Assembly: GCA_027001995.1 (NCBI GenBank)
Contig: JALTLO010000104.1
Location: forward strand, 1 to 16,292
DNA length: 16,292 nucleotides
Reading direction: 5' to 3'
Origin: Planctomycetota bacterium
Lineage (GTDB): Bacteria; Planctomycetota; GCA-002687715; DRQF01
This document shows, one piece after another, positions 379 to 16,292 of the stretch. The translations under genes were made by a program, and so were the position numbers. The notes below the pieces were generated by a model. That model was given only the letters and a program-made list of their open reading frames with translations, did no database searches and was not told where the DNA came from. Numbering within the stretch: the stretch's first letter is position 1; each line of letters starts with the position of its first letter.

Positions 379-382
379 TTTC

Positions 383-1552
383 ATGGGCAGGTCGAAAATC
401 GGCGCAATTGCGATTTCGATCTGTTTCTTTTTGACCATCGGACAACCGGCTTTTCTCGATCAAGTCCGGTATCCGATGGCTCTTGTGCTTTCCTGGCCCG
501 CTCGGGTTTTGTTTTCCTGGACTAACCCCCCACCTCCCGATCCTACAGTGGCGGAAAATCAATCTCTTAGGCTTCGAGAAGTTTGGCAGAGGGCTCAAGC
601 GGGTGAACCCAATGGGCAGGGCTTTCGGGTTTTTTCTACTAATGCTAAGCGCTTCTCCATTTTCATCGCAGGGGGATGGAATGAAGGGATTCGCCGGGGA
701 GACGTGGTTCACGACAACAAAGCACTCTTGGGTTTTGTAGATTTGGTCACGGAGACCGCGTCTCGGGTCCGCCTTATCTCTTACAAAGCCTCCCATGTTG
801 CTGGACAAGTGAAACTAAGGCCAAATGAGAAGCTCCCCCGTGGGGCGTCACCAGATTTGTTGTTGTCAGGTCGTGGTGAATTCGGTTTGGTGGCTCGTCA
901 GGGATGCCGCATCCACCGAGATTTCTTAGGGCGTCCGGTGCAATACTTGGATGATCAAGGCTTATGGAAACTGACCATCGGAAAAGTCGCTTTCAGTGAA
1001 GAATTGAATCAATTGGTGGTGCTTCCCGACTTCAAAATGGACCAATTGGAGCGTGTCCTCATCGGCGATCGCAGCGCTGGCCCTCAAGAAGCTGAAGGCA
1101 AAGATGATGTCATGGCTCGTGTTATGTCATTTGGACGGACATCTGTTGCAGGCAAGCGTTGGTGGCTATCGAAGGGGAGCCAAGCTGGGATTCTTGAAGG
1201 CTCTTGGGTCTCTTGTGGCGGAGCTCTCGTTGGTCGAATCGAGCGAGTCGGTTTCTTGAGTTCGTTTATGAGATTGCTTGATCCCTCACGAGATTTGGTT
1301 ACTTGCAAGGTCGTTGATCTTGAGGATGGCGTGGTCGGAGATGTGCAATGGCCCGAAGAAAAAGAGATCTTAGGGCACCGATTCTCGAAAGGACGTAGCA
1401 AAAAGAAGGGGCTTCCTGCGGGGCTGTGGTTGGGCCATGTCGGAGATTCCCAAGTTGAGATCGGGCCTCCCGCTCCTCAATTTGGCGAAATGGTGACCAT
1501 TCACGGGGCCTTGTCTCCGAGATTGATCTTTCAGTTAGACCTAACCCGATGA
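383..1552 (+). CDS. mreC: Rod shape-determining protein MreC, apparently with two tandem MreC beta-modules
   Basis: N-terminal TM segment, short AENQSLR coiled-coil signature, then the MreC motif twice (IAGGWNEGIRRGDVV...LLGFVDLVTETASRVRLI and LSKGSQAGILEGSWV...LVGRIERVGFLSSFMRLL). Lies between mreB and mreD. Confidence 0.88.
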   Translation: MGRSKIGAIAISICFFLTIGQPAFLDQVRYPMALVLSWPARVLFSWTNPPPPDPTVAENQSLRLREVWQRAQAGEPNGQGFRVFSTNAKRFSIFIAGGWNEGIRRGDVVHDNKALLGFVDLVTETASRVRLISYKASHVAGQVKLRPNEKLPRGASPDLLLSGRGEFGLVARQGCRIHRDFLGRPVQYLDDQGLWKLTIGKVAFSEELNQLVVLPDFKMDQLERVLIGDRSAGPQEAEGKDDVMARVMSFGRTSVAGKRWWLSKGSQAGILEGSWVSCGGALVGRIERVGFLSSFMRLLDPSRDLVTCKVVDLEDGVVGDVQWPEEKEILGHRFSKGRSKKKGLPAGLWLGHVGDSQVEIGPPAPQFGEMVTIHGALSPRLIFQLDLTR

Positions 1553-2004
1553 TTGTCGTCTGGGCTCTTATCACCGCAGCTTGGTCAAGTTTGGCCACGT
1601 CATTGGATCTTGGTTTCTGGGTTCTCCCGGACATAGCCATTGTGATCTCAATCTGGGCTGGCCTACGTGTTTGGCGTTATGACGAAGACCTCCTGCTTGC
1701 CTTAGTTGTGGGATTGTCCAGTGGGCTTTTCACTACGGATCCATGGTTTTTGTCGCCCTTGCTTTCTTTGTTGGCGGTACAGCTAAGCTCCTTTCTTCGG
1801 GTTCAAGTTGCTCCTCGGAGCTTCGTTGGACGCGCCCTTGCTATTGGAGGCTGCTTGCTTCTTCTTGGTATCGCTGAGGCTCTCCTACGATTGTCGGTTC
1901 CATCGCTTATTCTGGATGCCAACACGTCTTTCGGCATTGTTTGCCGCACTTTGAGCGGTATACCGCTCACCATTTGTTTGGACCAAGTTAGGATACGACG
2001 CTAA
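1549..2004 (+). CDS. mreD: Rod shape-determining membrane protein MreD
   Basis: 151-aa hydrophobic multi-TM protein with a WVLPDIAIV motif typical of MreD. ATGA overlap with the mreC stop and TAATG overlap with pbp2; canonical operon position. Confidence 0.82.
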   Translation: MIVVWALITAAWSSLATSLDLGFWVLPDIAIVISIWAGLRVWRYDEDLLLALVVGLSSGLFTTDPWFLSPLLSLLAVQLSSFLRVQVAPRSFVGRALAIGGCLLLLGIAEALLRLSVPSLILDANTSFGIVCRTLSGIPLTICLDQVRIRR

Positions 2005-4646
2005 TGTCCACGCCGATCCCCATTCGATCTGAGCGTCGCTTAGGAGTTGTTTTCGCTGCATTCTTGGCCCTATTTATCCTGATGTCAGGGCGGCTTTTTG
2101 AATTGCAGTTCTTGCGTTCTGACGCTATCGAAACAGGCGTTGCAAAACGCCGTCATCGATACCAGAAGCTTCAAGCCTACCGTGGCAATATCCTTGATCG
2201 GCAGGGGCGTCCTTTTGCCACCACAGTCAATCGCTATGACCTGGCTTTTCTGCCAGCGAATTTTCGTGAGCGCAATGGCATAGACGCTCTACAAGATTTG
2301 CTCATCGCTTGGTGCCCAGAAGTATTGCCCGCAGAATTCGGAGAAATACCACTTCGATTCAATGACCGGGTGATAGAGCGCCTGCAGCGTTTTCACCAAG
2401 TCTATTCCTTGCGCCAAAGAGGAATCGAGAAGCTCTTGAGTCTTTCTGTCTCAGACCTTGTGTTTGAGAAGTCTCATCTTGTTCGTCGTTTCGAGAAGAT
2501 TCGTTATCCCGCTGGTGAGCTGATTCTTCCCCCTTCAAAACTGAAGCGGAGGTTAGAAACAGCACTTTTGATTTTGGCCGACAATGAAGTGTGTAGCACC
2601 CTACGAGACCTAAGATCACGGATGGCGACCTTCGAGAATTTGGCAGAAGTCTTGGCTGTGACACCAGAATCAGTGAATCAAGGGCTCGAAGATCAATGGG
2701 AGAAACTTCAACACTTCTCTGATCAGATCGTTTCTACTCGACCTGGGTTGTTCTTGACCAAGATGTTCGAGATGGAGCAAAGAGATCTGGTTCGGGTTCA
2801 TCGGCGGGTGGAAAACAGTCTGGACGATGCCATTTGCGCCATCGAGTTGGGCTCCCATGATTTAGGCCACCATTTGTCCAAAGAGCAATTTGAATCTTTG
2901 GCAGCAGAACTGGACCTGGGGCGCGACAAGGTTCAAGAGCTCGAGCCTGTTCTCAAGGAATTGTTAGAGCAAGAAGCCCAAGCAGACAACAATGAGATCG
3001 CCAAGAAGTTGGCTGCTGCCCGCGAGATCTTGCGAGGTCGCCAGTTGAAATCTTTGGCGCCTTACGAGCTCAAGAGTTTGGCGCGTGTTCTTGAGTTTTG
3101 GGACGACGATCCGCAAAGATTGAAGCGGGCTTTTGCCAAACGGTTCAAGGCGTCTCCGGCTTTCGTTGGTCGCCGAGAAGAATACCTCAAAATTGAAAAA
3201 GAATGGCACCGCACTTTGCAGTTCAAGGGTGGTGTCCCTTTCACTTTGTTTCGGGGCTGTGGTTTTCCGGTAGCGGCACAGGTCTGGCGCAGCTTCGGAC
3301 TGGGGGAACTTGGTTTTGAAGTGCGGGCCTCCCAGGGACGGAGCTATTGGGCCGATGAGAAAGGTGTTGCCGCTCAGCTCATTGGCCGACGTAATGGCAG
3401 CGGTGATCCTCTCGGAGGATTGGAGCTCGCGCTCTCCATAGGAGGAAAAGACAAGGGCATTTGGAACGCTCCCCTTGTGGGCCATGACGGGGTCTTAAGA
3501 AAACGACAAGAGTTGGATGGCCGTTGGCGCATCATTGACGGTGGCCGTGAGCCTAAACATGGCAAGGATGTCTGGCTGACTCTTGATCGGGAAATGCAGG
3601 CAGAAGCAGAGACCCTCATGGGGGAGATGTTTGCCAGTCTTGGCTCCCGAACTGGGGCTGCCTGCTGCGTCATAGATGTGGAGACTGGGGAAATCGTTCT
3701 CTTGGCATCGGCTCCAACAAGTTCGGGGGCTGATTATCTCGAACGTTATCTCGAAGAGGCGACTTTAAGACGAGCCTTGGGCGCTGCCAAGAATGCCCGT
3801 GATTCTGGTGACCTCTCGACTCAAGATTACATCGAGATTCAAAGGCGGATTCGGGAAGAACTCTATTACTTGGCGTTCTTCGAACGTTCCGTTGAAGCGG
3901 GGACCGTCACGCAATCGCCCCCAGGGTCTGTACTCAAATGTTTTGCTGCGGCGGCCTTGGCTCAAGAGGGCCTTTTCAAAGTTAACGAGATCTTTGATTG
4001 TCCCGAGAAAGGGCCAGTCAACATCTGGTTGGCCCTGGAGAGATCATCCAACCCCTTTTTCTGGGAGGGCGCTAAGCGTCTTGGCCGCGCAGCGTTAATC
4101 GACTGGTATCAACAATTCGGTTTGTTTCGTCCGATTCCTTTGCTGACCAAGCAGAGAGATTGCGATGCCAGACTCAAACAAGTCAGAAACGATGCCCCTA
4201 AGAATATCGTGATTGGACAGGGGAGCGTCAGCCTTTCGGTCTTGGAAGTCGCCAGCATGATGACCAACTTGGCAAGAGGAGGTCGTTGCGTCGAACCTAT
4301 GATTGTCAAGCGGATTGGTTCGGTTGATCTTAAAGCAAAGGATCAAAATCGAATTGAAGTTGATAGGGCCATTTTCGACGAGATCACCCAAGCCATGCTT
4401 AGAGTCTCTGGGCATTACGTTGACCCCAAGAAGGTGGAAGAATTGGGCTTGGCTGGGAAGACGGGGACGGCAGAATTGGGTGGCAAGGACAAAGGTCTCT
4501 ATAACGCTTGGTTTGCTGGTTTCGCTCCTGCTTCAAAACCAAAGTACGCATTTGCTGTCGTTGCAGAGCGAACGGGTTTGATGGGCAAGACAACAGCACC
4601 CTTCGCCGCCAGACTTATTGAAATGGTGATGAGGCTCAAGAAGTGA
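2004..4646 (+). CDS. mrdA: Class B penicillin-binding protein 2 (elongation D,D-transpeptidase), 880 aa with a large internal insertion
   Basis: N-terminal TM followed by RLFELQ, RGNILDRQG, G-LE and GKDVWLTLD class B motifs. Catalytic motifs SVLK (3927), SSN (4044) and KTGTAE (4458), plus NAWFAGFAP. Lies between mreD and rodA. Confidence 0.93.
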   Translation: MSTPIPIRSERRLGVVFAAFLALFILMSGRLFELQFLRSDAIETGVAKRRHRYQKLQAYRGNILDRQGRPFATTVNRYDLAFLPANFRERNGIDALQDLLIAWCPEVLPAEFGEIPLRFNDRVIERLQRFHQVYSLRQRGIEKLLSLSVSDLVFEKSHLVRRFEKIRYPAGELILPPSKLKRRLETALLILADNEVCSTLRDLRSRMATFENLAEVLAVTPESVNQGLEDQWEKLQHFSDQIVSTRPGLFLTKMFEMEQRDLVRVHRRVENSLDDAICAIELGSHDLGHHLSKEQFESLAAELDLGRDKVQELEPVLKELLEQEAQADNNEIAKKLAAAREILRGRQLKSLAPYELKSLARVLEFWDDDPQRLKRAFAKRFKASPAFVGRREEYLKIEKEWHRTLQFKGGVPFTLFRGCGFPVAAQVWRSFGLGELGFEVRASQGRSYWADEKGVAAQLIGRRNGSGDPLGGLELALSIGGKDKGIWNAPLVGHDGVLRKRQELDGRWRIIDGGREPKHGKDVWLTLDREMQAEAETLMGEMFASLGSRTGAACCVIDVETGEIVLLASAPTSSGADYLERYLEEATLRRALGAAKNARDSGDLSTQDYIEIQRRIREELYYLAFFERSVEAGTVTQSPPGSVLKCFAAAALAQEGLFKVNEIFDCPEKGPVNIWLALERSSNPFFWEGAKRLGRAALIDWYQQFGLFRPIPLLTKQRDCDARLKQVRNDAPKNIVIGQGSVSLSVLEVASMMTNLARGGRCVEPMIVKRIGSVDLKAKDQNRIEVDRAIFDEITQAMLRVSGHYVDPKKVEELGLAGKTGTAELGGKDKGLYNAWFAGFAPASKPKYAFAVVAERTGLMGKTTAPFAARLIEMVMRLKK

Positions 4647-5869
4647 GTGAACGTCGTCTCATAGTTTTTGCCATAGGGTTTCTCGCCTTGTCTTTGGCAA
4701 TTTGTGGTTTAGCTGTTCAGTCGTCCGTGTTGGACGTGACCGGGAACTTAGGTCATCGAACCCAGGCAAAATGGGTTCTTCTGAGTGTCTTCGCTGCAGG
4801 CGTCATTCCCTTCATTCGTCACCGTGTTTTGATGCGCCACTCCTACTTGGTCTTCGGAGCCGTGCTTCTTCTTTTGGCTGCCGTTCCCATCGTGGGAGTA
4901 AGCCGTAACTTCAGCCAAAGGTGGTTGGAGGTCGGAGGTTTCAGCTTGCAACCTTCGGAGCTGATGAAGATCGCCTTTGTCTTGGCTTTGGCTCGGCTAC
5001 TTCGGTATCGGGGTGATTTTTCTAAGCTAGGAAATCTGATCCCTGCGGGTTTACTGATGGCGCTCCCTGTTGGTCTTATTTTTCGGCAACCTGATCTCTC
5101 GACGGCCATTCTTTTTGTGCCGACGACCCTTAGTATGCTTTTTGTCGCTGGAGCCAGAAAAAAACACATTGCCATGATTCTCTGCGGTGGCGCTTTGGCC
5201 GCGATCTTTGTTTTCTTTTTCTTTCTTGAGCCTTATCAACGGGAGAGGGTGACGTCGACTTTTGGCAGCGGCTCTATGACCAAAGCTGAGCTGGAACGAG
5301 AAGGCTTCCAGTTGGATCAATCGATTCAATCTATTGGCATTGGTGGTATGTTCGGAAAGGGCTGGGCCAATGGGACTCAGAATCGCTTGAACCGTTTGCC
5401 GTACCGCCACAACGACTTCATTTTTGCGGTTTTGGCTGAGGAATTCGGCTTTGTCGGTTGCACGCTTTTGTTCGGGTCTATTCTCACTTTGCTACTTCTG
5501 ATCCTGCGGGTGGCATATTTGACGCGAGACACCGCCGGTAGGCTCACCTGCGTCGGTTTGGGCACTATGTTCGCATTTCAGTCACTGGTTCACATTGGTG
5601 TCAATCTGGGGGTGGTCCCAACCACGGGGATGACGTTGCCCTTCGTTTCCGCTGGCGGTACTTCCCTGCTGACATTCTCTGTGGCTATGTCTTTGGTGGC
5701 GAGCATTGTCATGCAGCCCAGTCGAGGTTTTGGTGGTCTGTCGATTCGTGAGCAACTTGCGCGTTTGGAGGCCATTGTCGGTTTTCGCGGTGGGAAAGCC
5801 AGTCACCCTGCGTTGCAACAAATGAGGCCTATGGTAAAGTCCAAACCTCGTCGGTTTAGAAGTTCTTGA
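4643..5869 (+). CDS. rodA: SEDS-family peptidoglycan glycosyltransferase RodA
   Basis: Motifs SQRWL, SLQPSELMK, QPDLSTA, YQRER, GFQLDQS, HNDFIFAVLAEEFG and GMTLPFVSAGGTS. GTG start overlaps the pbp2 stop (GTGA). Confidence 0.95.
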   Translation: MSERRLIVFAIGFLALSLAICGLAVQSSVLDVTGNLGHRTQAKWVLLSVFAAGVIPFIRHRVLMRHSYLVFGAVLLLLAAVPIVGVSRNFSQRWLEVGGFSLQPSELMKIAFVLALARLLRYRGDFSKLGNLIPAGLLMALPVGLIFRQPDLSTAILFVPTTLSMLFVAGARKKHIAMILCGGALAAIFVFFFFLEPYQRERVTSTFGSGSMTKAELEREGFQLDQSIQSIGIGGMFGKGWANGTQNRLNRLPYRHNDFIFAVLAEEFGFVGCTLLFGSILTLLLLILRVAYLTRDTAGRLTCVGLGTMFAFQSLVHIGVNLGVVPTTGMTLPFVSAGGTSLLTFSVAMSLVASIVMQPSRGFGGLSIREQLARLEAIVGFRGGKASHPALQQMRPMVKSKPRRFRSS

Positions 5870-6018
5870 GGTCTTCGCTTTCTTTTCTTCCTTGTGAGGC
5901 AAAGCGGCTAAGATCTGGGGGCTGTTTTAGGGGTTGAGAAGACCAGTCTTGGGGCTCGCTGAAAGCCTGGAGGCTCGAACCGTAGATCGACGTGATGTGC
6001 AAGTAAGGACTGTGGCAA

Positions 6019-7677
6019 ATGTACGCCGACCTTGAGTCGAGAAAACAAGTGCGAGAACTCCTAACCCAGGCGCGAACCGCGTTTGAGGTTTTTCGTCGCT
6101 TTGATCAGCAGCAGGTCGACCGTATTTGTTACGCCATGGTGGAGGCTGGTTATGAAGCCTCAGAACGCTTGGCTCAAATGGCTGTGGAAGAAACCGGCTT
6201 TGGCCGGGTGGATGGCAAGATCGCCAAGAACCAGTTCGCCACCCGAGGTCTGTGGGCTCACATTCGGGACATGAAAACTTGCGGTCTTCTGCGGTCTGAT
6301 GTGGCTCCTGGGGTCCATGAGTATGGTGACCCCTTTGGCATTGTTGCGGCCATCATTCCCACAACGAACCCCACGTCCACAGCTATGTTTAAGGCTTTGA
6401 TCAGCGTGAAGTCTCGCAATGCCATGGTGACGAGCCCTCATCCAAGGGCTGTGTCCTGCATTAAGGAGAGCATTCGGATCTTGCATGATGCCGCAGTTTC
6501 TGCCGGTGCCCCCCAAGGGCTTATTTCCTGCATGGATGTGATATCCTTGGATGGCACCGATGAACTCATGAAACACAAAGATACTGATCTTATTTTGGCC
6601 ACCGGTGGGTCTGGTCTGGTCCGAGCGGCCTACTCCTCCGGGAAGCCAGCTTTTGGGGTTGGCCCTGGGAATAGCCCAGCCTGGATTGATCGCAGTGCCG
6701 ATCTTGCCCATGGGGCACGTTGTTTGGTGGACAGCCAGACCTTTGACAACGGGACAATTTGCGCGTCTGAGCAGTCTTTGGTGATTGATCGTCCCGTTGA
6801 GGCAGCATTTCTAAGAGAGATGAAACAAAGAGGGGCTCATTTCTGTAGCCCTGATGAAGCGGAAAAACTGGCTAAGATCGTTTCTGTCCGAGGTGGTATG
6901 AATCCTGCCATTGTTGGCCAGTATCCCTGGCGCTTGGCGGAGATGGCGGGTTTTTCTGTTGCCAAGGAGACCACCGTTCTCTTGGCGCCCTGTTCTGGTG
7001 TGGGGGCTAAGCATCCGCTTTCAATTGAGAAGTTGTGTCCGATTCTCAGTGTTTTCGTCGAAGATGGATGGGAGGCTGGATGCGAGCGTTGTCTCGAAGT
7101 GCTTCGCTTCGGTGGTATGGGCCACACTTTGGCACTCCACTGTCAGGATGAGGCTATCATCCGGGTATTCGCCGAGCAGAAGCCGGTTAACCGCCTCATC
7201 GTCAATAGCCCGTCCAGCCAGGGTGCCGTGGGCTACAGTACAAATCTCGACCCCAGTTTGACATTGGGGTGTGGATCGTTTGGTGGCAATATCACTTCAG
7301 ATAACATTGGCCCCATGCATTTGCTCAACATCAAACGTTTGGCTTACGTTGTTCCTGACTATGAAAACAGCGCAACTTGGGGCGGTGGATTTCCAGATCT
7401 CGGTGTCGCTTTCCAGGATGTCTTCGGGGGCGGCGAAGGAAAAGCTGCCTCGGTCCTGCCCAAGCAACTTTGGCAACCGAAAAAGCGCGGCGGAAAGAAA
7501 AGGCAACGGGCAGAGAATGCAAGTCGTCTAAGTTCGGCTCCCGGAGTTGGCACACCAACGGATGATGAGCTGCGGGCGATCATCGCCCAAGCCCTTGGGA
7601 GCTCTGAAGGAAAGCACTGTCCTTGCGGAACAAATTTGGATGACCAATCCAAAGAAGATGAAAACAAGAGTTATTGA
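6019..7677 (+). CDS. BMC-associated CoA-acylating aldehyde dehydrogenase (EutE/PduP/AdhE-N-like) with a C-terminal encapsulation peptide
   Basis: Motifs IPTTNPTST, ATGG, GVGPGNSP, catalytic FDNGTICASEQ, EKLCP, GHT and LTLGCGSFGG. A ~110-aa C-terminal extension contains the amphipathic helix TDDELRAIIAQALG. SD-like AAGGA upstream; adjacent to shell genes. Confidence 0.95.
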   Translation: MYADLESRKQVRELLTQARTAFEVFRRFDQQQVDRICYAMVEAGYEASERLAQMAVEETGFGRVDGKIAKNQFATRGLWAHIRDMKTCGLLRSDVAPGVHEYGDPFGIVAAIIPTTNPTSTAMFKALISVKSRNAMVTSPHPRAVSCIKESIRILHDAAVSAGAPQGLISCMDVISLDGTDELMKHKDTDLILATGGSGLVRAAYSSGKPAFGVGPGNSPAWIDRSADLAHGARCLVDSQTFDNGTICASEQSLVIDRPVEAAFLREMKQRGAHFCSPDEAEKLAKIVSVRGGMNPAIVGQYPWRLAEMAGFSVAKETTVLLAPCSGVGAKHPLSIEKLCPILSVFVEDGWEAGCERCLEVLRFGGMGHTLALHCQDEAIIRVFAEQKPVNRLIVNSPSSQGAVGYSTNLDPSLTLGCGSFGGNITSDNIGPMHLLNIKRLAYVVPDYENSATWGGGFPDLGVAFQDVFGGGEGKAASVLPKQLWQPKKRGGKKRQRAENASRLSSAPGVGTPTDDELRAIIAQALGSSEGKHCPCGTNLDDQSKEDENKSY

Positions 7678-7720
7678 ATGAGTCGCTGGCTGATGGCAGT
7701 GAGCATGAATGGAGAAAGTA

Positions 7721-8014
7721 ATGAGTCAGATCGCATTAGGCATGATTGAGACCCGAGGACTGGTTGGAGCTGTTGAGGCTTCTGATGCTATGGTGAAGGC
7801 CGCTCGTGTCACCCTTTTGGGCAAAGAAAAAATTGGTGGTGGATTCGTCACTGTCATGGTTCGAGGTGAAGTCGGTGCGGTGAAGGCAGCAACAGACGCT
7901 GGGGCCGCTGCTGCTCGTCGTGTTGGCGAGTTGGTAAGTGTTCATGTGATCCCTCGTCCCCACGAACAAGTCGAAGGCATTTTGCCTGTGGCTGTGGCCC
8001 CTACGGAAGGGTAG
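7721..8014 (+). CDS. BMC-H hexameric shell protein (EutM/PduA/CcmK family, PF00936)
   Basis: [24 protein letters not shown]...[10 protein letters not shown]...HVIPRPH. I place the start at ATG 7721 rather than 7709 because GGAGA at 7711-7715 precedes it as an RBS. Confidence 0.98.
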
Positions 8015-8023
8015 GGCTGAACC

Positions 8024-8650
8024 GTGGCCGAAATCCAGCTTCGAACGTTTGTCTTTCTCAACTCGATGCAACCTCAGTTTGCTTCTTACGTGGCCACCAC
8101 GGCGAAGGGTTATCTGCCCGTTGCTTATGAGGCCAGCGTGTTTATTGAGATTGCTCCAGGAATCGCTATTAACCGGGCTACCGATGCGGCCCTCAAGGCG
8201 AATGATGTTCGTCCCGGTATGCAGATCGTCGAACGGGCATTTGGACTTTTGGAAATTCATGGTCCCTCCCAAGCGGAAGTTCTTTCTTCTGGCGAGGCTG
8301 CTTTGAAGGAAATGGGACTGACGATCAGCGACCGTATGAAGCCAAAGATCATGTCATCTCAGATCATCACCAACGTGAACGATTATCAAGCTCAATTGAT
8401 CAATCGCATGCGCTATGGCCACATGATTTTGGGTGGAGAATCGCTCTACATCCTGGAAGTCGAGCCAGCAGCCTACACAGCTTTGGCCGCCAATGAGGCT
8501 GAGAAAAACGCCGACATCAAGTTGTTGGACATGCGTGTTTCCGGGGCATTCGGCAGGCTTTATCTCAGTGGAGAAGAATCGGCCATCCAAGAAGCGGTTG
8601 CTGCCGTTGATGCTGCCTTGGCTAATCTGGACGGACAAGGGGGTGGCTAA
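8024..8650 (+). CDS. BMC-T shell protein, circularly permuted stacked-dimer type (BMC-Tdp; CsoS1D/CcmP/Haliangium T2-like)
   Basis: LRTFVFLNSMQPQ, EIAPGIAINR, VERAFGLLEIH, PAAY...AANEAEK and GAFGRLYLSG are the signature segments of the BMC-Tdp family. GTG start. Confidence 0.95.
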   Translation: MAEIQLRTFVFLNSMQPQFASYVATTAKGYLPVAYEASVFIEIAPGIAINRATDAALKANDVRPGMQIVERAFGLLEIHGPSQAEVLSSGEAALKEMGLTISDRMKPKIMSSQIITNVNDYQAQLINRMRYGHMILGGESLYILEVEPAAYTALAANEAEKNADIKLLDMRVSGAFGRLYLSGEESAIQEAVAAVDAALANLDGQGGG

Positions 8651-9195
8651 TGCTTCAGGGATTTGTAGCCGGAGAATTGTGGTCGAGCGTTCAGGTCCCG
8701 AGCTTGACGTCCTACAAACTTCTTTTGGTACACCCGGAAGGTGCATCGATTGACCAACGAGAGATTGTCGCGGTTGACTTGGTTGGTGCTGGGGTGAAAG
8801 ATCGTGTTTTGGTTGCTCTCGGACGGGCGGCCCGCAACGCCATGGGAGACGAGAACGCTCCGGTGGAGGCTGCGATCATAGCTGTGATTGATGGCTTAGA
8901 AAGAGACGGTCCAATTCCGACGTCCCCATTGGCGGGAAGAAATTCATCTAGCGATAGAACGCCAGTAAAGAAAAAACCAGCGCGCAAGAAGAAAGCTAAG
9001 AAGCAAGGGGAGGTGTCCGCTCCCGAAGAAACCATGGACTTGTTTCGAGAAGAAGAAACAGAAATGGATGGGAATGACGCCGGATTATTTGGCAGTGAAA
9101 CCGATCCGGATACGGTGAAGAATGACGAAATGCCAGGGATCGACGATGTTGATCGTTTCTGGGGTGATGATGAAGAGGAAGAAGGCAAGAACTGA
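8650..9195 (+). CDS. BMC-P vertex pentamer (EutN/CcmL family, PF03319) with a long disordered C-terminal extension
   Basis: The first ~83 aa carry V.G.LWS...L.SYKLLLV...VAVDLVGAG..DRVLV..G.AAR...PVEAAIIAVID; ~98 aa of low-complexity sequence follow. TAATG overlap with the upstream stop. Confidence 0.94.
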   Translation: MLQGFVAGELWSSVQVPSLTSYKLLLVHPEGASIDQREIVAVDLVGAGVKDRVLVALGRAARNAMGDENAPVEAAIIAVIDGLERDGPIPTSPLAGRNSSSDRTPVKKKPARKKKAKKQGEVSAPEETMDLFREEETEMDGNDAGLFGSETDPDTVKNDEMPGIDDVDRFWGDDEEEEGKN

Positions 9196-9797
9196 TGGTT
9201 GAAGCCAAACAAGTGAGTGACGATACCTGCCTGGGATTGATGGAGATCTCTTCGATTCCTCGAGGGTTGCTTGCTGCCGACCTGATGATCAAGGAAGCCT
9301 CCATTGAGATACTTGTGTGCCGTCCGGTTTCTCCTGCGATTTATCTCATCGTGTTTGAAGGCGATGTGGAGTCGGTTTCCCGCAGTCTAACACGAGGGCA
9401 GGAATGCGCTGGGCCATCACTTGTGGGAATGCTCTCACTCCCTCAACCTCACACTCAAATGGTTGAGGCGATTTACCAGATTCGCCAAGTCGATGAAGTG
9501 GATGCCGTCGGGGTTATGGAGCTCACACAAATTGCCGCCACTTTAGAAGCAGCCGATGCAGCAGCCAAGGCCGCTGAGATTGAGATTTTGGAAATTCGAT
9601 TGGCCATGGGGCTCCACGGTCATGGTTTCTTTACGATAACCGGAGAGATTTCCTCTGTAGAGGCAGCTATAGAGGCCGCAGCCGCAATCGGAAGAAAGCG
9701 CGGTGCTTGGCATGATCAGGCGATGATTCCGAATCCGGATGCGGTTTTTGTTCAGCACCTAACTGACCCACGTTCGCCCTTTAGCCCTCTGCCATAA
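9195..9797 (+). CDS. BMC-T shell protein, single-layer tandem-domain type (PduT/Haliangium T1-like)
   Basis: Two non-permuted BMC domains: LGLMEISSIPRGLLAADLMIK...GDVESV and AVGVMEL...AADAAAKAA...IRLAMG...GEISSVEAA...IPNP. TGATG overlap with the BMC-P stop. Confidence 0.92.
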   Translation: MVEAKQVSDDTCLGLMEISSIPRGLLAADLMIKEASIEILVCRPVSPAIYLIVFEGDVESVSRSLTRGQECAGPSLVGMLSLPQPHTQMVEAIYQIRQVDEVDAVGVMELTQIAATLEAADAAAKAAEIEILEIRLAMGLHGHGFFTITGEISSVEAAIEAAAAIGRKRGAWHDQAMIPNPDAVFVQHLTDPRSPFSPLP

Positions 9798-9841
9798 GAA
9801 CCCCAGAACCTGAGTCTTCCCTGCCAAGCCTCGAGTTTTTT

Positions 9842-9869
9842 GGAACCAAGTAAGAGTCCATGAGTCTAA
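9842..9869 (+). promoter_or_regulatory. Candidate ECF-sigma (RpoE/AlgU-like) promoter at the start of the sigma gene
   Basis: GGAACC (9842-9847), 16 nt, GTCTAA (9864-9869) resembles the GGAAC...GTCnAA RpoE/AlgU consensus. It overlaps ATG 9860. Confidence 0.5.
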
Positions 9870-10465
9870 GTAATGGTAACAAAGAGCTGACTTCCACTGC
9901 GGATGCGGAGTTGGTCCGTCAAGCAGTTGATCTGGAATCGGCTGAGGCCTTTGAAGAACTCATGAGCCGTTACTATGAACGAACTTACGCGATTATTTTT
10001 CGCATGGTGCGGGAGACGGAAGCGGCACGAGACTTAACCCAGGAGACATTCCTCAAGGCTTGGCGCGGCCTATCATCTTATTCTGGGGATGCGGCTTTCT
10101 TCACGTGGCTCTACAGAATTGCCAGGAATCTCGTGAACTCCGAGTATCGAAGATTGAGAGTTCGGCCCCAGGTTGTCATGACTTTAGGGGATAGTGGAGA
10201 AGAAGATCGCCAAGGGTTTGATCCCCAGTCAGCGGGGGAAAGTCCCGAAGAAGAATTAGCCCGTCTTGAGAGGCGGGAGAAAATTACGGACGCGATTGCT
10301 GGTTTGCCTCCAGATTTTCGCGAGATCATCGTTTTGCGTGATTTAGAGAAAACATCGTACGACGACATTGCTGAACTACTGGAAATACCAGTGGGGACGG
10401 TTCGCTCCCGCTTGCACCGTGCAAGGATGGAGTTGAAAGCGAAATTGTCCGATATGTTCGATTGA
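9860..10465 (+). CDS. ECF RNA polymerase sigma factor (RpoE/SigW-like)
   Basis: Region 2 (AFEELM..Y, DLTQETFLKAW, FFTWLYRIARN) and region 4 (LPPDFREIIVLRD...SYDDIAELLEIPVGTVRSRLHRAR). The true start may lie slightly downstream. Confidence 0.97.
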   Translation: MSLSNGNKELTSTADAELVRQAVDLESAEAFEELMSRYYERTYAIIFRMVRETEAARDLTQETFLKAWRGLSSYSGDAAFFTWLYRIARNLVNSEYRRLRVRPQVVMTLGDSGEEDRQGFDPQSAGESPEEELARLERREKITDAIAGLPPDFREIIVLRDLEKTSYDDIAELLEIPVGTVRSRLHRARMELKAKLSDMFD

Positions 10466-10474
10466 GGATTCGTC

Positions 10475-11851
10475 ATGAATTGCCGGGAGTGCCACGACAA
10501 ACTATCTCTTTACCTCGATGGTCAGTTGACCGACGAGGAGAGATTGCGCGTTGAGGAAGCCCTAGGACGCTGCCCCGAATGTGTAGAAGAACTCGCCGCA
10601 CTCTCTTCGTTGACCAAGGAGATGGGGGAGTTTGGGGATGTACCTATTCCAACGGACCTATTGCAGGATCTTAAGTCTGCTTTTCGCCAAGAGTTGGCTG
10701 TAACAGAAAAGAAGCGGGCTGGGCCTTCGTTCTTGAGGCGCATGGGCGGGTGGCGAATCGCTGCAAGCGTGGCTGCTCTTTTGTTCGCGACTTGGGCGAT
10801 TGTTGAAGATCGTGCTCATCGTGTGAGTTCGACAGAGAGTTTCTCTCAAGAATTCGTCACCCTATCTGATAGAGATTCTGACCCAGGTCGAAGAGACGTG
10901 ACGACCATGGACGGAGTTGGCCCACCTGAAGAAGAACAGGAGGAGGCTGATGATCTCTTAGGCCTTTCGAATTCCTCACGGGCTCCGGCTGGCTCCGTGG
11001 CAGAAGCTTCTTCACCATCGGTAGACAAGAAACGTCAGACCCCCAATAAAGGGCGGGCTAAACCCAAGGCCCTGAAAGCAGAGATCGTCAATGATGATCG
11101 GGACTTGGTGGTGTTAGCTGTTTCTCCCACAAGGAAGCAGTACTTGGACTTAGTTCCCGAGATGAAGAGTCGTTTGGGTCTCGATTTTCGGGCGGAACCT
11201 TGGCCCGAATTTGATGGGGGATTCGCTGGCTCGGTGAAAGGGAAACCACTGGCAAAGAAATCCGTCCTCGATGGAGTGAAGCAGGGTGGGGGAGTGGGAC
11301 GGTCTCCTCTGATCCCAAAAAGTAAGGCCAAAGGGAAAGGTATTCCTAAGACCGTTCGACGAAATGCGGCCAGCTCATTGCCCCTTGTGTCTTCGGCTTT
11401 TTTTGCTCTTGGTCCTAACGCGAGTGAGACGATTAAAGCTGCGGCCCGAAAGGCTGGACTTAAGATTGTTCCATCGAAACTTGGTTCTCTTTCCCAAGAT
11501 AAGGCCGAGTCTGTGGAAGGGGAGATCCTTACGGTGGAATTGACCAAGAGTCAGAGGGATGCTTTGCTTCAGGATTTGGCGAAGAAGAAGGGTTTTCGCA
11601 TTCAGCTATTTGGTCGTGGGGGAGAGGGCTTGTTGCACCCTGGGTCGTTGGACGAAACTGGGCAACATGCGACAGACACTTTCAAGGGAAGAGGATTGAG
11701 TAAGAGTGCCCCAGCAAGCAAAGGGGGGAAATTGCCCAAGCAAGGGAATAAGCAAGCGGACTCCAAAGCACCGTCGATGAAATCCAAGCGGACTCAAGGG
11801 AAGAAACTAGAGCCGCGATATCGCCTCAGTTTCATCTTGCTGAGGCCCTAA
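10475..11851 (+). CDS. Membrane-anchored anti-sigma factor, zf-HC2/ZAS-like N-terminus with a long low-complexity C-terminal region
   Basis: MNCRECHDKLSLYLDGQL...VEEALGRCPEC, a single TM segment (WRIAASVAALLFATWAIV), and a start 9 bp after the ECF sigma stop with GAGGA as RBS. Confidence 0.88.
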   Translation: MNCRECHDKLSLYLDGQLTDEERLRVEEALGRCPECVEELAALSSLTKEMGEFGDVPIPTDLLQDLKSAFRQELAVTEKKRAGPSFLRRMGGWRIAASVAALLFATWAIVEDRAHRVSSTESFSQEFVTLSDRDSDPGRRDVTTMDGVGPPEEEQEEADDLLGLSNSSRAPAGSVAEASSPSVDKKRQTPNKGRAKPKALKAEIVNDDRDLVVLAVSPTRKQYLDLVPEMKSRLGLDFRAEPWPEFDGGFAGSVKGKPLAKKSVLDGVKQGGGVGRSPLIPKSKAKGKGIPKTVRRNAASSLPLVSSAFFALGPNASETIKAAARKAGLKIVPSKLGSLSQDKAESVEGEILTVELTKSQRDALLQDLAKKKGFRIQLFGRGGEGLLHPGSLDETGQHATDTFKGRGLSKSAPASKGGKLPKQGNKQADSKAPSMKSKRTQGKKLEPRYRLSFILLRP

Positions 11852-12033
11852 TTGGGCATTTTTCGAATTCTCCGATATGGTTCTTCTGGGCAGATTAGGA
11901 GGAGAATTCTGACTTCCAACTTAGAAACCTCTGTGCCCCCTCCAAAGATCTGCTCCCAAAAGCATGAAATTTTCGCTTAATAGAATATTTTGTTGTATCC
12001 AGGGCGAAATTTTTTATATCCTCTCAATAGTCG

Positions 12034-12061
12034 TTGCACGGGGCAAAACGAGCTATACAAT
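12034..12061 (+). promoter_or_regulatory. Candidate sigma70 promoter for the XRE regulator gene
   Basis: TTGCAC (12034-12039), 16 nt, TACAAT (12056-12061) within an AT-rich 300-bp intergenic region. Confidence 0.45.
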
Positions 12062-12155
12062 TGTCAGTTAATCACTTGTAGCTGATTCGGGCATTCCCGA
12101 GTCTCACCAGTTTCTGGGAAATGGCTGGCCGGTGTAACGCTGAAGGAGGATGAAA

Positions 12156-12749
12156 ATGGCAGACGAAGGCAGCGTCAAGCCCGCACGGGAGGCGACCACA
12201 AAAAAGAGTAGGGCAGAGAGAGAGGCCGAAGTACGACGGAAATATGACTTCGGTGTCATCCGTGCTCTACGGCAAGAAAAGGGCCTTACCATCGAGAAGT
12301 TCGCGAAGCTTTGCGGATTGAGCTATGCGCCAATTTCTCGCATCGAAACCAATCTGATCAAGCCGAACTTAGAGACCTTGGACAAAATCGCCAAGGGTTT
12401 AGGCATCACCACTTACAACTTGGTTGCCATGGCCGAAAAGCGCGATGCTGAATTGCGAAATGGGCACGACTACAAGGCGGGTACGTTCGAGTTTCGAACT
12501 TTCACTTTCGACGGCGTTAACGTTTCTTATGGCTTCGCCCCTAAGGGTGCTCGAACGGATGAGCTTGACATGAGGGATCAGCAGTACGAAAACTTGGTGG
12601 TCCAATCTGGCTTGCTCGAGGTCACGGTCAACAACGGTTCCTTCCGCTTACAAGCGGGAGAGGCCCTTCAGTATGACCGGGTGTTCCCGAGAACTTATAC
12701 AGCGTTGGAAGACACAAGAGTTATCGTTGTTTCTCATTCAATCGGCTAA
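12156..12749 (+). CDS. XRE-family HTH transcriptional regulator with a C-terminal cupin domain
   Basis: IRALRQEKGLTIEKFAKLCGLSYAPISRIETNLIKPNLETLDKIAKGLG (HTH_3) plus the cupin segment E.LVVQSGLLEVTV...LQAGEALQY. AAGGAGG at 12143-12149 abuts ATG 12150, so ATG 12156 is the more likely start. Confidence 0.93.
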   Translation: MADEGSVKPAREATTKKSRAEREAEVRRKYDFGVIRALRQEKGLTIEKFAKLCGLSYAPISRIETNLIKPNLETLDKIAKGLGITTYNLVAMAEKRDAELRNGHDYKAGTFEFRTFTFDGVNVSYGFAPKGARTDELDMRDQQYENLVVQSGLLEVTVNNGSFRLQAGEALQYDRVFPRTYTALEDTRVIVVSHSIG

Positions 12750-12784
12750 GCCTTTGGAATGAGTAAGAAAGCGATTCCTGCCAA

Positions 12785-12820
12785 ATAAGAAGAGCATGCC
12801 TTGGGCGTGCTCTTTTCTTT
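12785..12820. terminator. Intrinsic terminator, probably bidirectional, between the convergent XRE and FGE-domain genes
   Basis: Stem AAGAGCATGCC (12790-12800), loop TTG, GGCGTGCTCTT (12804-12814) with one G-U pair, followed by TTCTTT and preceded by an A-rich run. Confidence 0.8.
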
Positions 12821-12831
12821 GATTCTCTTCC

Positions 12832-14217
12832 TTACTTCTTTTCGACGCTTTGAGCGCAACGAAAGCCTACGTCTTTTTGGTGGGTTCCGCTGGCTGGTAG
12901 TTGCCAACGCCATTTCAAAGAGACCCCAGGCTGGGAACTGTTGAAGCTACCTCCTCGAACAATAACCGTCGTCCCTTCCTTCAAATTATCCTTGCAGTCC
13001 TTGCCTTCGATGGTCGAATTGATCCATTCTTTAACGTTACCCGACATGTCGTAGAGACCATAGAAGGACCTCCCCTTGGGGTAGGTGCCCACTGTAACAG
13101 GCTTTCTATTCTTGGCTTTGCCGTCGTTGCATGATTCGGGGAACCATTTGTCGCCCCAGGGAAACTCCGTTGTCTTGCCTGGCTTTGCTGTTGCAGCCGC
13201 CATCCACTCTGCTTCCGTTGGGAGGCGTTTGCCCTGAGATTTTGCGTAGGCCCTTGCGGCAAGTAGATCGACACCTGTGACTGGCAATGTCATGTGGGCA
13301 TCCAATGGCGCGTATTCCCCCGTGTCTGGATCTTGGACCCACTGAGGCAATTCCCGCCCTTTCGAATCAGTGAATTTGGGCATGTAGGCGGCCTTCAGGG
13401 TCTTGTCCTTGAGCAAGACCCAAAACTTACTCCAGTATTCACCATGAGTGACCTCAAAGAGATCGATGTAAAACGCTTTTACTTTTGCCCGTCTTTTCTT
13501 GGTCGAGAAGCCATAGCTCGATTCTATGATGATCTTGCCCCCTGGGATCTTCGCCATTTTTGGCGGAGCGCCCACGGTGTACTTCATCTTTGGATCTTTG
13601 AGCACCAAAAGGGTTTCTTCTGACGACTTGAGGGAATCGAAGGCCGCTATGTAGTCGGATCGCTTGGGAGCAGATGATAGGATGACATCATTCCATAGTT
13701 GGTGAAATTGCGTGTCCTTCGGCAACAAACGGCGAATGACAGCTCGGGCGAATTCTTCCCCATCAACTTCTTTTTGCTCGTCCTTCAGCCAATTCTCCAA
13801 AGACAGGGTGAAGGCCCCTTTCATTTCTTTCTTCAAAGTCAGTAGGAGGGGATGTTCGATCTTACTCGTTGCCTTGGCCACTTCTTTGGAGAACCCTCGT
13901 AGGATTTTCTTGGTTTTTCGACCGCTGCGAATGTTGCTGTTGACATCTTTCAGGGGGCTTTCAAGGACGCGAACGATATCCTTGACCGCGCTCTTGTCGC
14001 TGCCATTGCGCGCTTCTTGGAAGAGCTTTTGAAGCCGAGCGTAGTCATCCTGGAGGGCCGTATTGGCTTCAGCTAACTCTATCTTTTTTGCGGCTACCAC
14101 GGCTTCTTGGGATTGAATCTTGGCCAAAGCCTTGGCGTCCACGACACCGGTTCCCCCTTGGGCTAGGGCGCTTGCCCCCATAAGAAGCCAGAGAGTAGCT
14201 ATCACTGCGAATTTCAT
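12832..14217 (-). CDS. Secreted protein with an N-terminal helical region and a C-terminal FGE-sulfatase (SUMF1/EgtB/PvdO-like) domain
   Basis: Signal peptide ending ALA-Q. Motifs FYIDLFEVT, PVTGV, GKRLPTEAEW, FPWG, YGLYDMSGNVKEW, RGGSF and VGFRC. AAGGAGA RBS on the minus strand at 14229-14235. Confidence 0.92.
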   Translation of the reverse strand: MKFAVIATLWLLMGASALAQGGTGVVDAKALAKIQSQEAVVAAKKIELAEANTALQDDYARLQKLFQEARNGSDKSAVKDIVRVLESPLKDVNSNIRSGRKTKKILRGFSKEVAKATSKIEHPLLLTLKKEMKGAFTLSLENWLKDEQKEVDGEEFARAVIRRLLPKDTQFHQLWNDVILSSAPKRSDYIAAFDSLKSSEETLLVLKDPKMKYTVGAPPKMAKIPGGKIIIESSYGFSTKKRRAKVKAFYIDLFEVTHGEYWSKFWVLLKDKTLKAAYMPKFTDSKGRELPQWVQDPDTGEYAPLDAHMTLPVTGVDLLAARAYAKSQGKRLPTEAEWMAAATAKPGKTTEFPWGDKWFPESCNDGKAKNRKPVTVGTYPKGRSFYGLYDMSGNVKEWINSTIEGKDCKDNLKEGTTVIVRGGSFNSSQPGVSLKWRWQLPASGTHQKDVGFRCAQSVEKK

Positions 14218-14397
14218 GATACGGAGAGTCTCCTTCGTCCTTTTTGACTTGGGCCGAGTATAACCGAAAGTGTCCTCATTGTTGACTCATCCCCATCCTT
14301 TCTTCTGCACTTATTCTCCCATCTTGCTGGTTCCCTCCCGTGAGGGGCTAACCCCCCCAGATGACACGGGGGGGGCAAATGGTAGGATGGGTTCATC

Positions 14398-14613
14398 ATG
14401 ACTGTATTCACCAAAGAAATGCTCGTTTGTGACATCGTGGATTCTCATCCAGGGGCCAAGGATGTCCTACTGGAGTTTGGGCTTCCCTGTTTTCGCTGTG
14501 TTGTGGCCTACACGGAGACCTTGGCGGAAGGGGTTCAGCCTCATGATTTGGACGCTGATTTGATCATCGAACGTCTCAACTCTCTTCCTGGCAAGGGCAA
14601 CAAAAAATCGTGA
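14398..14613 (+). CDS. DUF1858-like small CxxC protein (hybrid-cluster-protein-associated redox disulfide domain type)
   Basis: FTKEMLVCDIVDSHP...VLLEFGLPCFRC..A..ETLAEG...H.LD...IIERLN matches the family pattern. Confidence 0.85.
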   Translation: MTVFTKEMLVCDIVDSHPGAKDVLLEFGLPCFRCVVAYTETLAEGVQPHDLDADLIIERLNSLPGKGNKKS

Positions 14614-14645
14614 CCTGTGGTGATGAGGAGGCCCTGCCCTCGTCT

Positions 14646-16292
14646 ATGGACCAACCCGTCAGTGAATTGAAAGGTGTTGGTCCCAAGCGCAAGGACGTTC
14701 TTCGGGATGGAGGAATCAACTCCCTAGCGGATCTCCTCGGCTATTTTCCCCGCCGCCATCGATTCATTCCTGCTGTCAGCGCATTGGATGGGGTTCCTCA
14801 CGGCCGAATATGCACCCTTTTGGGAGAGGTCGCATCTTTGGTTCATCGCCGGAGTCGCCGGCATTCCGGTGGACATCTGCGTGTTCGCCTTCAAGTCGAT
14901 GATGAGATTGTTGTTCTCGAATTCTTCAATCAAGGGTACTTGCGCAATACCATTGAAGCTGGACAATTCCTTAGGGTAACGGGGGTTCTACTTCGAGAAC
15001 CTACCCTGACCTTGACACCAACGAACTTCAAGATGGCCAAGGATGTGAAGGAACTTGATTCTTCCGCCCTGATCTTGAGCGACTACAAGGCGATTGGGGC
15101 TCTGAGATCGAGCCAGATCTGGACTTTGGTACGTGCTGGCCTGCAACAAGTTGCTGGAGACATGAAGGACCCTATTCCCAGGCCTCTATTGCAGCGTCGC
15201 AAGCTGGTGAGCTTGGAGCATGCGGTTGGGCAATATCACGTACCGAATTCTTCCCATGAACTTGAGTTGGCCTCGAGGCGTTTGTCTTACAATGCCTATC
15301 TCTTAGGTGCCTTGAGGGCTGAAGGGGTCAAGAGTGACCTCAGAAAGGCTCGGGCTGAAGAAATTTTGCGGGATTCTCAGCGGGAAAAGCGAAGCCAATC
15401 TGTCTTGCCGTTCCAGTTGACCGAAGGACAAAAGGAGGCTCTTGAAGAGATTCTTCAGGACCTAGCCTATCCCCAGCCCATGCGCCGTCTTCTTCAAGGT
15501 GACGTGGGGTGTGGCAAGACAGCTGTGGCTGCCATGGTCGCTCTCAACGTCGGCCTCCATGGCCAACAGGTGGCATTCTTGGCACCGACGGAAGTTTTGG
15601 CGCGGCAAATTCATGACGTCTTGCGTGGGTGGGGCCAAGGGGTTGGCATAGAGAGCACTCTTCTTGTGGGCGGCATGAAGGTTCGCGAAAAGCGCCAAGC
15701 TCTTGAGCAAGTTGCCCAAGCCAACGGCGCCATCGTCGTGGGTACCCATGCCCTGTTTCAAACCCCGGTTACTTTCCGCGATTTGGGTCTTGTCATTGTT
15801 GATGAGCAACATCGCTTTGGGGTTCTTCAACGATTACGCTTGGTTCGCAAAGGGAAGTCACCCCATCTGTTGGCCATGAGCGCCACACCGATCCCGCGTA
15901 CTTTGGCCATGACTCTCTATTCGGATCTCAAACTCTCCTCGGTAAAGCACCGTCCGGGCAATCGCTTGCCCATTGAAACGTCCCACCATGTTCGAGACTT
16001 GGATGGCCCGTTTGCCTGGCAACAATTGGCAGCTCGGGCGCGATCTGGAGAGAAATGTTTCATCGTCTTTCCCGGAATCGAAAGTGAAAACGAGTCTTTT
16101 CCCACCCTGTTGGGCTTAGGCCGTTTGCTGGCCAAGCGATTCTTTAAGGGTGTCCCTATGGCAGCAGTCCATGGGAGAATGAAGGACGAAGATAAACAAA
16201 AAAACTTGCAAGCTTTTCGCAACGGCGACGTCAAGGTCTTGTTTGCTACCACAGTGATCGAAGTGGGAGTTGACGTCCCAGACGCTCAACAC
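14646..16292 (+). CDS. recG: ATP-dependent DNA helicase RecG (3' truncated by the window edge; not in the supplied ORF track)
   Basis: Manual translation gives MDQPVSELKGVGPKR...DLLGYFPRR, LPFQLTEGQ, MRRLLQGDVGCGKT, LAPTEVLARQ, VGTHAL, VIVDEQHRFG, MSATPIPRTL, VHGRMK and ATTVIEVGVDVPDA. An alternative in-frame GTG at 14610 overlaps the upstream stop. Confidence 0.97.
   Translation, partial: MDQPVSELKGVGPKRKDVLRDGGINSLADLLGYFPRRHRFIPAVSALDGVPHGRICTLLGEVASLVHRRSRRHSGGHLRVRLQVDDEIVVLEFFNQGYLRNTIEAGQFLRVTGVLLREPTLTLTPTNFKMAKDVKELDSSALILSDYKAIGALRSSQIWTLVRAGLQQVAGDMKDPIPRPLLQRRKLVSLEHAVGQYHVPNSSHELELASRRLSYNAYLLGALRAEGVKSDLRKARAEEILRDSQREKRSQSVLPFQLTEGQKEALEEILQDLAYPQPMRRLLQGDVGCGKTAVAAMVALNVGLHGQQVAFLAPTEVLARQIHDVLRGWGQGVGIESTLLVGGMKVREKRQALEQVAQANGAIVVGTHALFQTPVTFRDLGLVIVDEQHRFGVLQRLRLVRKGKSPHLLAMSATPIPRTLAMTLYSDLKLSSVKHRPGNRLPIETSHHVRDLDGPFAWQQLAARARSGEKCFIVFPGIESENESFPTLLGLGRLLAKRFFKGVPMAAVHGRMKDEDKQKNLQAFRNGDVKVLFATTVIEVGVDVPDAQH

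Follow-up and report, generated by a model that had tools for sequence, protein, structure and literature searches.

Which aldehyde would be processed by a bacterial microcompartment (BMC) whose locus holds shell genes and an acylating aldehyde dehydrogenase (AldDH) and no signature enzyme? The question is raised by a 16,292-nucleotide stretch of planctomycete DNA (the window), which is contig JALTLO010000104.1 (here C104) of a 5.2-Mb draft genome (G000) that is 92% complete. An earlier note, made from the letters of the window, had described five of its genes as an orphan Haliangium-type locus with a complete shell set and an unknown aldehyde substrate. A search of 41 genomes, 23 of them belonging to the same planctomycete order (G000 counted), points to another answer. 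From the sequences, the window genes and a second locus on contig C141 are probably the two parts of a split metabolosome resembling the published SPU type, which likely converts deoxyribose-5-phosphate to glyceraldehyde-3-phosphate and acetyl-CoA. We favor this reading because both gene sets are present, the catalytic residues of the aldolase DeoC and of the AldDH are intact, the enzymes bear terminal extensions, and the two loci are present and lost together.

Two loci of a predicted metabolosome

The five window genes had been named correctly, in agreement with Pfam/NCBIfam, and their open reading frames (ORFs) are co-oriented, with intergenic gaps of 43, 9, -1, and -1 bases. The features of the locus are as follows.

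6019..7677, plus strand: AldDH, acylating, type I (TIGR02518/AdhE-N-like), 552 aa, by Pfam/NCBIfam, identity, and tree
6760-6762, plus strand: AldDH catalytic Cys248, onto which AdhE C246 maps
7558..7599, plus strand: AldDH C-terminal helix (aa 514-527) resembling an encapsulation peptide (EP), by sequence and a similar segment in relatives; putative role
7721..8014, plus strand: BMC-H, the hexamer, EutM-like, by PF00936 and 72% to E. coli EutM
8024..8650, plus strand: BMC-Tdp, CcmP-like gated-pore trimer, by NF053796 (269.7 bits, cut-off 340)
8650..9195, plus strand: BMC-P ORF, the fourth, main-locus pentamer, by PF03319
8650..8892, plus strand: BMC-P pentamer domain, by PF03319 and AlphaFold (residues 1-90)
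8893..9195, plus strand: BMC-P charged C-terminal tail of ~100 residues, predicted to be disordered by AlphaFold
9195..9797, plus strand: BMC-Ts, PduT-like, double PF00936, by Pfam/NCBIfam

As the earlier note had observed, no ammonia-lyase, dehydratase, glycyl-radical enzyme, aldolase, alcohol dehydrogenase, PduL/Pta, or acyl kinase was found by Pfam/NCBIfam among the window's 16 main ORFs. The scan for PF00936 and PF03319 satellites that it had proposed gave a divided result. PF00936 matched in the window only, where the BMC-H is the sole single-domain hexamer gene and the BMC-Tdp the sole Tdp gene of the genome (one Tdp per genome was found in 15 of 18 genomes searched), and PF03319 matched three further genes, all on C141. 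With three of the genome's seven shell genes on C141, the window does not hold a complete set, and the native shell is not the minimal four-protein one that had been suggested.

On C141, six genes lie head to tail and without gaps on the minus strand between 70593 and 73951, in the order BMC-P, RpiB, BMC-P, BMC-P, DeoC, and Udp; among them are the following.

73631-73951, minus strand: first BMC-P, by PF03319
72876-73634, minus strand: RpiB, by PF02502
71397-72233, minus strand: DeoC, deoxyribose-5-phosphate aldolase (DERA), by PF01791
70593-71390, minus strand: Udp, uridine phosphorylase

PF01791, PF02502, and a BMC-P triplet form the published SPU signature (PMC8217296). A standard core locus thus exists elsewhere in the genome and the window locus is no orphan; the suggestion of a metabolosome with cargo encoded elsewhere was borne out by DeoC and RpiB, and the SPU enzymes make acetaldehyde the predicted substrate. 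DeoC is the genome's single-copy, only DERA; its residues D153/K216/K245 align with E. coli D102/K167/K201, and it bears an N-terminal extension resembling an EP. RpiB occurs in two copies. The housekeeping copy on C21 retains the Cys at E. coli position 66, while the C141 copy has Asp there, as do all 22 DeoC-linked RpiBs, and retains seven other mapped E. coli positions (D9, H10, G67, H99, N100, R133, and R137). Its N-terminal extension forms a helix at residues 5-20 in the predicted model. C141 has no hexamer gene, and its three pentamers fall in three separate groups of the BMC-P tree. At 63661-67799, 3-7 kb beyond the sugar locus, lie cdd, pnp, nupC, and a divergent phosphohexomutase-family gene.

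The two loci are inherited together across the order. RpiB and BMC-P genes lie beside deoC in 19/23 order genomes (17 modules complete and 2 cut by a contig end), and all 16 of the 23 genomes in which the AldDH was detected belong to these 19. The four genomes without the module (G004, G006, G016, and G019) are also without the AldDH, a gap seen in continuous sequence, and their DeoC has no extension. In G004 and G006, the flanking gene rodA runs straight to the sigma factor gene and no shell gene was found; in G016 and G019, AldDH, BMC-H, and all or most of BMC-Tdp are deleted. With the tested family held out of training, a profile of the DeoC extension gave 17.6-105.6 bits for 22/22 RpiB-linked copies, and none of the remaining 7 of the 29 DeoC copies scored above 1.3 bits.

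The AldDH (PF00171) scores 588.9 bits against TIGR02518 (cut-off 620) versus 222.1 bits against NF011927 and is 43% identical to the N-domain of E. coli AdhE versus 31% to EutE. It has no N-terminal extension; the peptide-like helix is C-terminal, behind a long linker. A quick tree placed it on the type I side in an order-level group (support, 91). As this tree gave long-branch warnings, used 25 sequences chosen manually from 120 homologues, and held no labelled HO (Haliangium ochraceum), SPU6, ACI, or FRAG5 sequence, it gives the type I placement and the order-level group and not a subtype.

In the proposed pathway, NupC would import nucleosides, from which Cdd, PNP, and Udp would release (deoxy)ribose-1-phosphate in the cytosol. 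The phosphohexomutase-family enzyme of C141 may substitute for the absent DeoB and yield deoxyribose-5-phosphate; a phosphopentomutase of this family is known (PMC11641776). The peptides would load DeoC, the Asp-type RpiB, and the AldDH into a shell built from the H, Ts, and Tdp proteins and four different P proteins, the RpiB likely being a packaging partner. DeoC would then cleave deoxyribose-5-phosphate inside the shell to give acetaldehyde, which the AldDH would oxidize to acetyl-CoA, and the product would exit via the Tdp pore, PduL being absent. A class II aldolase encoded apart from shell genes may supply a second aldehyde feed in G000's family alone. According to Dwyer 2024 (PMC11585597), the Cys-to-Asp exchange is found in all SPU RPIs, SPU6 DERA is active and forms a complex with RPI, SPU6 RPI with the same Asp shows almost no activity on ribose-5-phosphate, and a Tdp is typical of SPU BMCs that lack PTAC, as is the case in G000. 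Family searches of the 92% complete genome found no EutB, glycyl-radical enzyme, or PduL, and a housekeeping-type Pta is encoded on C138. Diol dehydratase (PF02286) had no match in G000, and the control genomes gave none either.

Several observations weigh against this pathway. The genome has no match to DeoB or DeoA. It also has no Fe-dependent alcohol dehydrogenase over the cut-off, no AckA, and no clear PduS, so the recycling of NAD+ is not explained by the proposal. Two weak RsxC matches on C197 and C182 are presumably NuoF-like. The products of three further PF00171 genes might consume acetaldehyde outside the shell. The amphipathicity (hydrophobic moment) of the AldDH and RpiB peptides, 0.40 and 0.41, lies below the background 90th percentile of 0.45, as does that of the E. 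coli EutE peptide (0.43); the DeoC peptide, at 0.72, exceeds the background 99th percentile. The AldDH was also not found in G001 and G010, where contigs break at the site, or in G021, which is 76% complete. The adjacency of deoC and udp holds in 23/23 genomes, and the salvage genes persist in shell-less relatives, so they do not alone tie salvage to the shell. The genomes are kin rather than independent samples, the assemblies are drafts, and the joint loss amounts to four genomes and probably three to four events. The listed sequencing runs comprise five DNA runs and no RNA run.

If the two loci do act together, an apparently enzyme-less BMC locus gains an assigned substrate, and one origin of "orphan" loci becomes visible: signature enzymes within a nucleoside-salvage neighborhood on another contig.

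Some further features of these proteins and their neighbors were noted. The C141 RpiB (L009:10877-11635) has a folded segment (residues ~38-82) that separates its peptide from its isomerase domain, and a profile of this segment from 19 relatives matches, among 27 reference proteins, the N termini of E. coli EutQ (E value, 2.5e-7) and EutT (2.4e-4). The AldDH end in G000 carries a two-Cys remnant (window 7618-7632) of a four-Cys motif of its family relatives. Cys-rich motifs adjoin the peptides of three cargo enzymes, DeoC, AldDH, and the class II aldolase, and are possibly metal binding; the DeoC extension has four Cys in many relatives and none in G000, and the class II aldolase end has several. 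Two genes upstream of the sugar locus, order-wide and in shell-less genomes too, is a gene with a PF02577 bifunctional-nuclease domain (L009:13011-13472), which could supply nucleotides. In G024 (L116:2426-5104), a long DeoC adjoins an aldehyde dehydrogenase with no shell genes, likely a nonencapsulated route; the BMC satellite of that genome has a class II aldolase.

The tailed fourth pentamer

The proposed chemistry is ordinary, a known BMC job; the unusual part is the tailed pentamer of the main locus. AlphaFold folds residues 1-90 of the window BMC-P (block pLDDT, 80-97) and leaves the tail (block pLDDT, 48-71) unstructured except for a helix at 167-171. The tail, with a net charge of -11, contains a Lys/Arg block (8968-9003) of +9, then an acidic stretch and a conserved Trp motif (9160-9162). 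Seventeen copies of the main-locus BMC-P were examined, 3 of which are cut by contig ends. All 14 complete copies have a postdomain tail of 90-427 residues that includes a basic block (+6 to +10 over 15 residues) and, close to its end, a Trp motif, and the net charge is -10 to -24 in G000's family and -7 to +11 in the other families. No such tail is seen on the triplet pentamers, and the sequences behind 13 catalogue labels in the MIC3 main-locus clade are 97-143 aa long. A homologue search with the full-length BMC-P returned four sequences only. In the BMC-P tree (83 columns, weak support), the window pentamer groups weakly with MIC3-like main-locus pentamers.

A 2025 preprint (PMC12747264) calls a charged disordered pentamer tail archaeal and "not observed in BMCs." Our literature search, over titles and abstract openings in a library with little of the subscription literature, found no bacterial tailed pentamer.

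The tailed gene is lost in G004 and G006, intact in G019 (L175:562-1263), and intact as far as the contig reaches in G016 (L111:4960-5274), so it is retained in two of the four module-less genomes. In G019, Ts, RpiB, and two of the triplet pentamers have also been hit and one triplet pentamer is kept, and slow decay is a fair alternative explanation for the survival of the tailed gene in G019 and G016. The C terminus of BMC pentamers probably faces the cytosol. By analogy with the archaeal protein, the whole order might have independently evolved a trait so far regarded as unique to Asgard archaea, an extra pentamer of a nucleoside-catabolizing BMC whose long, charged disordered tail would bind DNA or RNA and tether the organelle to its substrate source or to the nucleoid, and which in two families would have diverged and outlived the deletion of the organelle (G016 and G019). 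We put this forward tentatively and think it rather doubtful; if true, the pentamer of G016 and G019 would be a shell protein turned stand-alone, five-armed scaffold. The tailed pentamer bears on why BMCs keep several pentamer paralogues and on whether vertex tails that bind nucleic acid are an innovation of the archaea.

Other possible aldehyde sources and the surroundings of the locus

A class II aldolase on C17 (12295-13023), the only PF00596 gene of the genome and of BMC type, could instead be the main aldehyde source in G000's family, as in the MIC3, HO, ACI, and PVM types, with 5-deoxyribulose-1-phosphate as the likeliest substrate; in such a route, radical-SAM waste would be cleaved to dihydroxyacetone phosphate and acetaldehyde. 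The gene was found in six of eight family relatives, which are precisely the ones that have shell genes; G004 and G006 gave no match. Its product shares ~37-50% identity with aldolases encoded next to BMC-P genes in G024, G025, G026, G029, and G039. Its best PDB match, 6BTD, is DrdA of 5-deoxyribose salvage (PMC6079011), and G000 also encodes a second PNP-family enzyme and an isomerase of the MtnA family. The lead of 6BTD over a FucA is narrow, however (91 versus 86 bits), the MtnA-family isomerase occurs in 39/41 genomes and is hence uninformative, no shell gene adjoins the aldolase, and it was found in none of the 14 genomes of the order's other three families, the majority of which retain both the shell and DeoC/RpiB. 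As the main source we judge it unlikely; that it is an additional feed has a probability somewhat short of even. By tblastn, 0/8 E. coli fucose/rhamnose proteins had a match in G000, in keeping with the 5-deoxyribulose-1-phosphate route, and a fucose/rhamnose route through fuculose- or rhamnulose-1-phosphate was rejected, its upstream genes being missing.

It is also conceivable that the Asp-type RpiB is an active isomerase feeding DeoC with another sugar phosphate, so that the aldehyde is not acetaldehyde from deoxyribose. The seven retained positions and the conservation of this RpiB in 19/23 order genomes agree with such a role, and Dwyer et al. (PMC11585597) leave room for other substrates, but the near inactivity of the SPU6 RPI and its complex with DERA, together with the position of the only DERA next to udp, make it very unlikely. 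Were the two loci unrelated, the window would make a cargo-poor shell and the C141 pentamers would be leftovers in a housekeeping nucleoside operon. The loci do lie on different contigs, or far apart, in every genome examined, and no shared regulator was found for them; a scan of 5500-12300 for promoters and terminators gave numbers in the range of chance (1 versus 3.5 and 10 versus 8.0 expected). Yet C141 itself lacks a hexamer gene, and the joint loss in 4/4 genomes, with the DeoC extension lost alongside, renders this explanation extremely improbable. We likewise give almost no credence to the original picture of a Haliangium-type orphan locus with an unknown aldehyde and a self-sufficient four-protein shell. 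The Tdp bit scores, near equal for CcmP (228.3) and the HO-model trimers 5V76 (228.3) and 5V74 (222.3), are in its favor as far as they go, since the score separates none of them; the type I AldDH with a C-terminal peptide, the four BMC-P and one Tdp, the planctomycete host, and the SPU enzymes of C141, co-inherited with the shell, all contradict it.

The split, SPU-like metabolosome thus remains our preferred reading, and its window genes are flanked by the 11 other main ORFs of the window: upstream (1-5869) by mreB, mreC, mreD (assigned by position), pbp2, and rodA and downstream (9860-16292) by genes for an ECF sigma factor, an anti-sigma factor, an XRE-cupin regulator, an FGE-domain protein, a DUF1858 protein, and recG. 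This flanking order is retained in relatives both with and without BMC genes. The BMC genes lie directly 3' of rodA in family f1 and in G011 and 3-4 kb beyond it in the examined f3 genomes, and in the examined f2 loci they are not near rodA; a functional link between the BMC genes and MreB was not adopted, as the spacing to rodA varies among families. The window MreC contains two MreC-like stretches and is of unusual length, and PBP2 has 880 aa. For BMC-H, an in-frame ATG is also present at 7709, and the start at 7721 was chosen as fitting the length of homologues. In BMC-Ts, Ser46 replaces the Cys of the two best PDB matches, 3NWG and 3PAC.

Comparison with catalogued microcompartment types

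The system is best read, from its sequences, as SPU-like in chemistry and as a variant between the FRAG5 and MIC3 types. No named subtype fits, because FRAG5 and MIC3 fail on shell gene counts or enzyme placement and the SPU subtypes on AldDH type or host, although members of the order might already sit in the published catalogue (PMC8217296) under FRAG5, FRAG8, or an omitted label.

EUT, GRM, and PVM systems differ in that the 92% complete G000 genome has no EutB/C, glycyl-radical enzyme, PduL, acetate kinase, or fucose/rhamnose supply. The HO type shares a main locus of shell genes and AldDH only, a single H, a Ts, and satellites with further P genes. Its AldDH, however, is related to SPU5/SPU7 and always has an N-terminal EP, unlike the C-terminal peptide of G000; it has one H, three P, two Tdp, and one Ts, against one H, four P, one Tdp, and one Ts; and its hosts are mostly Deltaproteobacteria. 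Sutter et al. (PMC8217296) proposed an SPU-like nucleic-acid catabolism for HO, so the analogy drawn earlier was not far off in function.

The SPU-type microcompartment of Hodarchaeales (PMC12747264) shares the DERA/AldDH/RPI chemistry, has uridine phosphorylase encoded upstream, and likewise has a pentamer that continues into a long, charged region of disorder. The archaeal tail, of 36-137 aa and positive net charge, occurs on a single pentamer out of three and has been shown to bind both DNA and RNA, whereas in G000 it is predicted on a fourth pentamer, at net -11 with a +9 block, and is near neutral in the other families.

With SPU BMCs (PMC8217296 and PMC11585597), the system has in common the DERA and AldDH core, the Cys-to-Asp RPI, N-terminal extensions on DERA and RPI, the BMC-P triplet, a Ts, and a Tdp where PTAC is missing. 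The SPU2 shell list likewise has the triplet plus an extra P, a CcmP-like Tdp, and a Ts, and SPU3, which includes Planctomycetes, has a Ts without Cys that is sometimes split. The order's system differs in being always split, on two contigs in G000 and joined by co-inheritance, in the tailed fourth pentamer, and in the EutQ/EutT-N-like segment behind the RpiB peptide. SPU1-5 and SPU7 have a type II AldDH with an N-terminal EP. SPU6 is the only subtype described with a type I AldDH and a C-terminal peptide, but it is confined to Chloroflexi and has a blue-clade Tdp and a separate EutQ-like protein, in contrast to the planctomycete host, the CcmP-like Tdp, and the EutQ-like segment within RpiB in G000.

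FRAG5 comprises 3 loci, all from Planctomycetes, and MIC3 comprises 11, also from Planctomycetes (Sutter 2021 Suppl. Data 2, PMC8217296). FRAG5 shares with G000 the host phylum, the SPU enzymes, an AldDH with a C-terminal EP, the P triplet, a CcmP-clade Tdp, a Ts without the pore Cys, and the lack of a PduS partner in its description; it has two BMC-H and two Tdp, where G000 has one of each plus the tailed fourth P. G030 (L073, L074, and L094), with two AldDH and two Tdp at separate sites and the P-RpiB-P-P-DeoC-Udp order retained, is nearer to the FRAG5 description than G000.

MIC3 resembles G000 in its main locus of AldDH, H, Tdp, P, and Ts with a satellite triplet, in a related class II aldolase, in the Cys-rich AldDH end of G000's family relatives, and in the weak grouping of the fourth P. 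It differs in having an amidohydrolase, two P, and two H in the main locus (no amidohydrolase, one P, and one H in the window), in main-locus P proteins of 99-127 aa that lack long tails, and in a triplet that sits with a PF00596 aldolase and no EPs rather than with RpiB/DeoC. G026 (L072, L103, and L091) is MIC3-like, with H, an AldDH with a Cys-rich end, H, Tdp, P, P, and Ts and a satellite of the triplet and a class II aldolase. A third site, free of shell genes, holds an Asp-RpiB and a DeoC, both with extensions, next to homologues of pnp, nupC, deoA, and deoB; shell-centered surveys would miss this site. G039 (L082) has the same shell-free RpiB/DeoC pair. This suggests that MIC3 also performs SPU chemistry, and the comparison would thereby tie two so far unresolved planctomycete types, FRAG5 and MIC3, to SPU chemistry.

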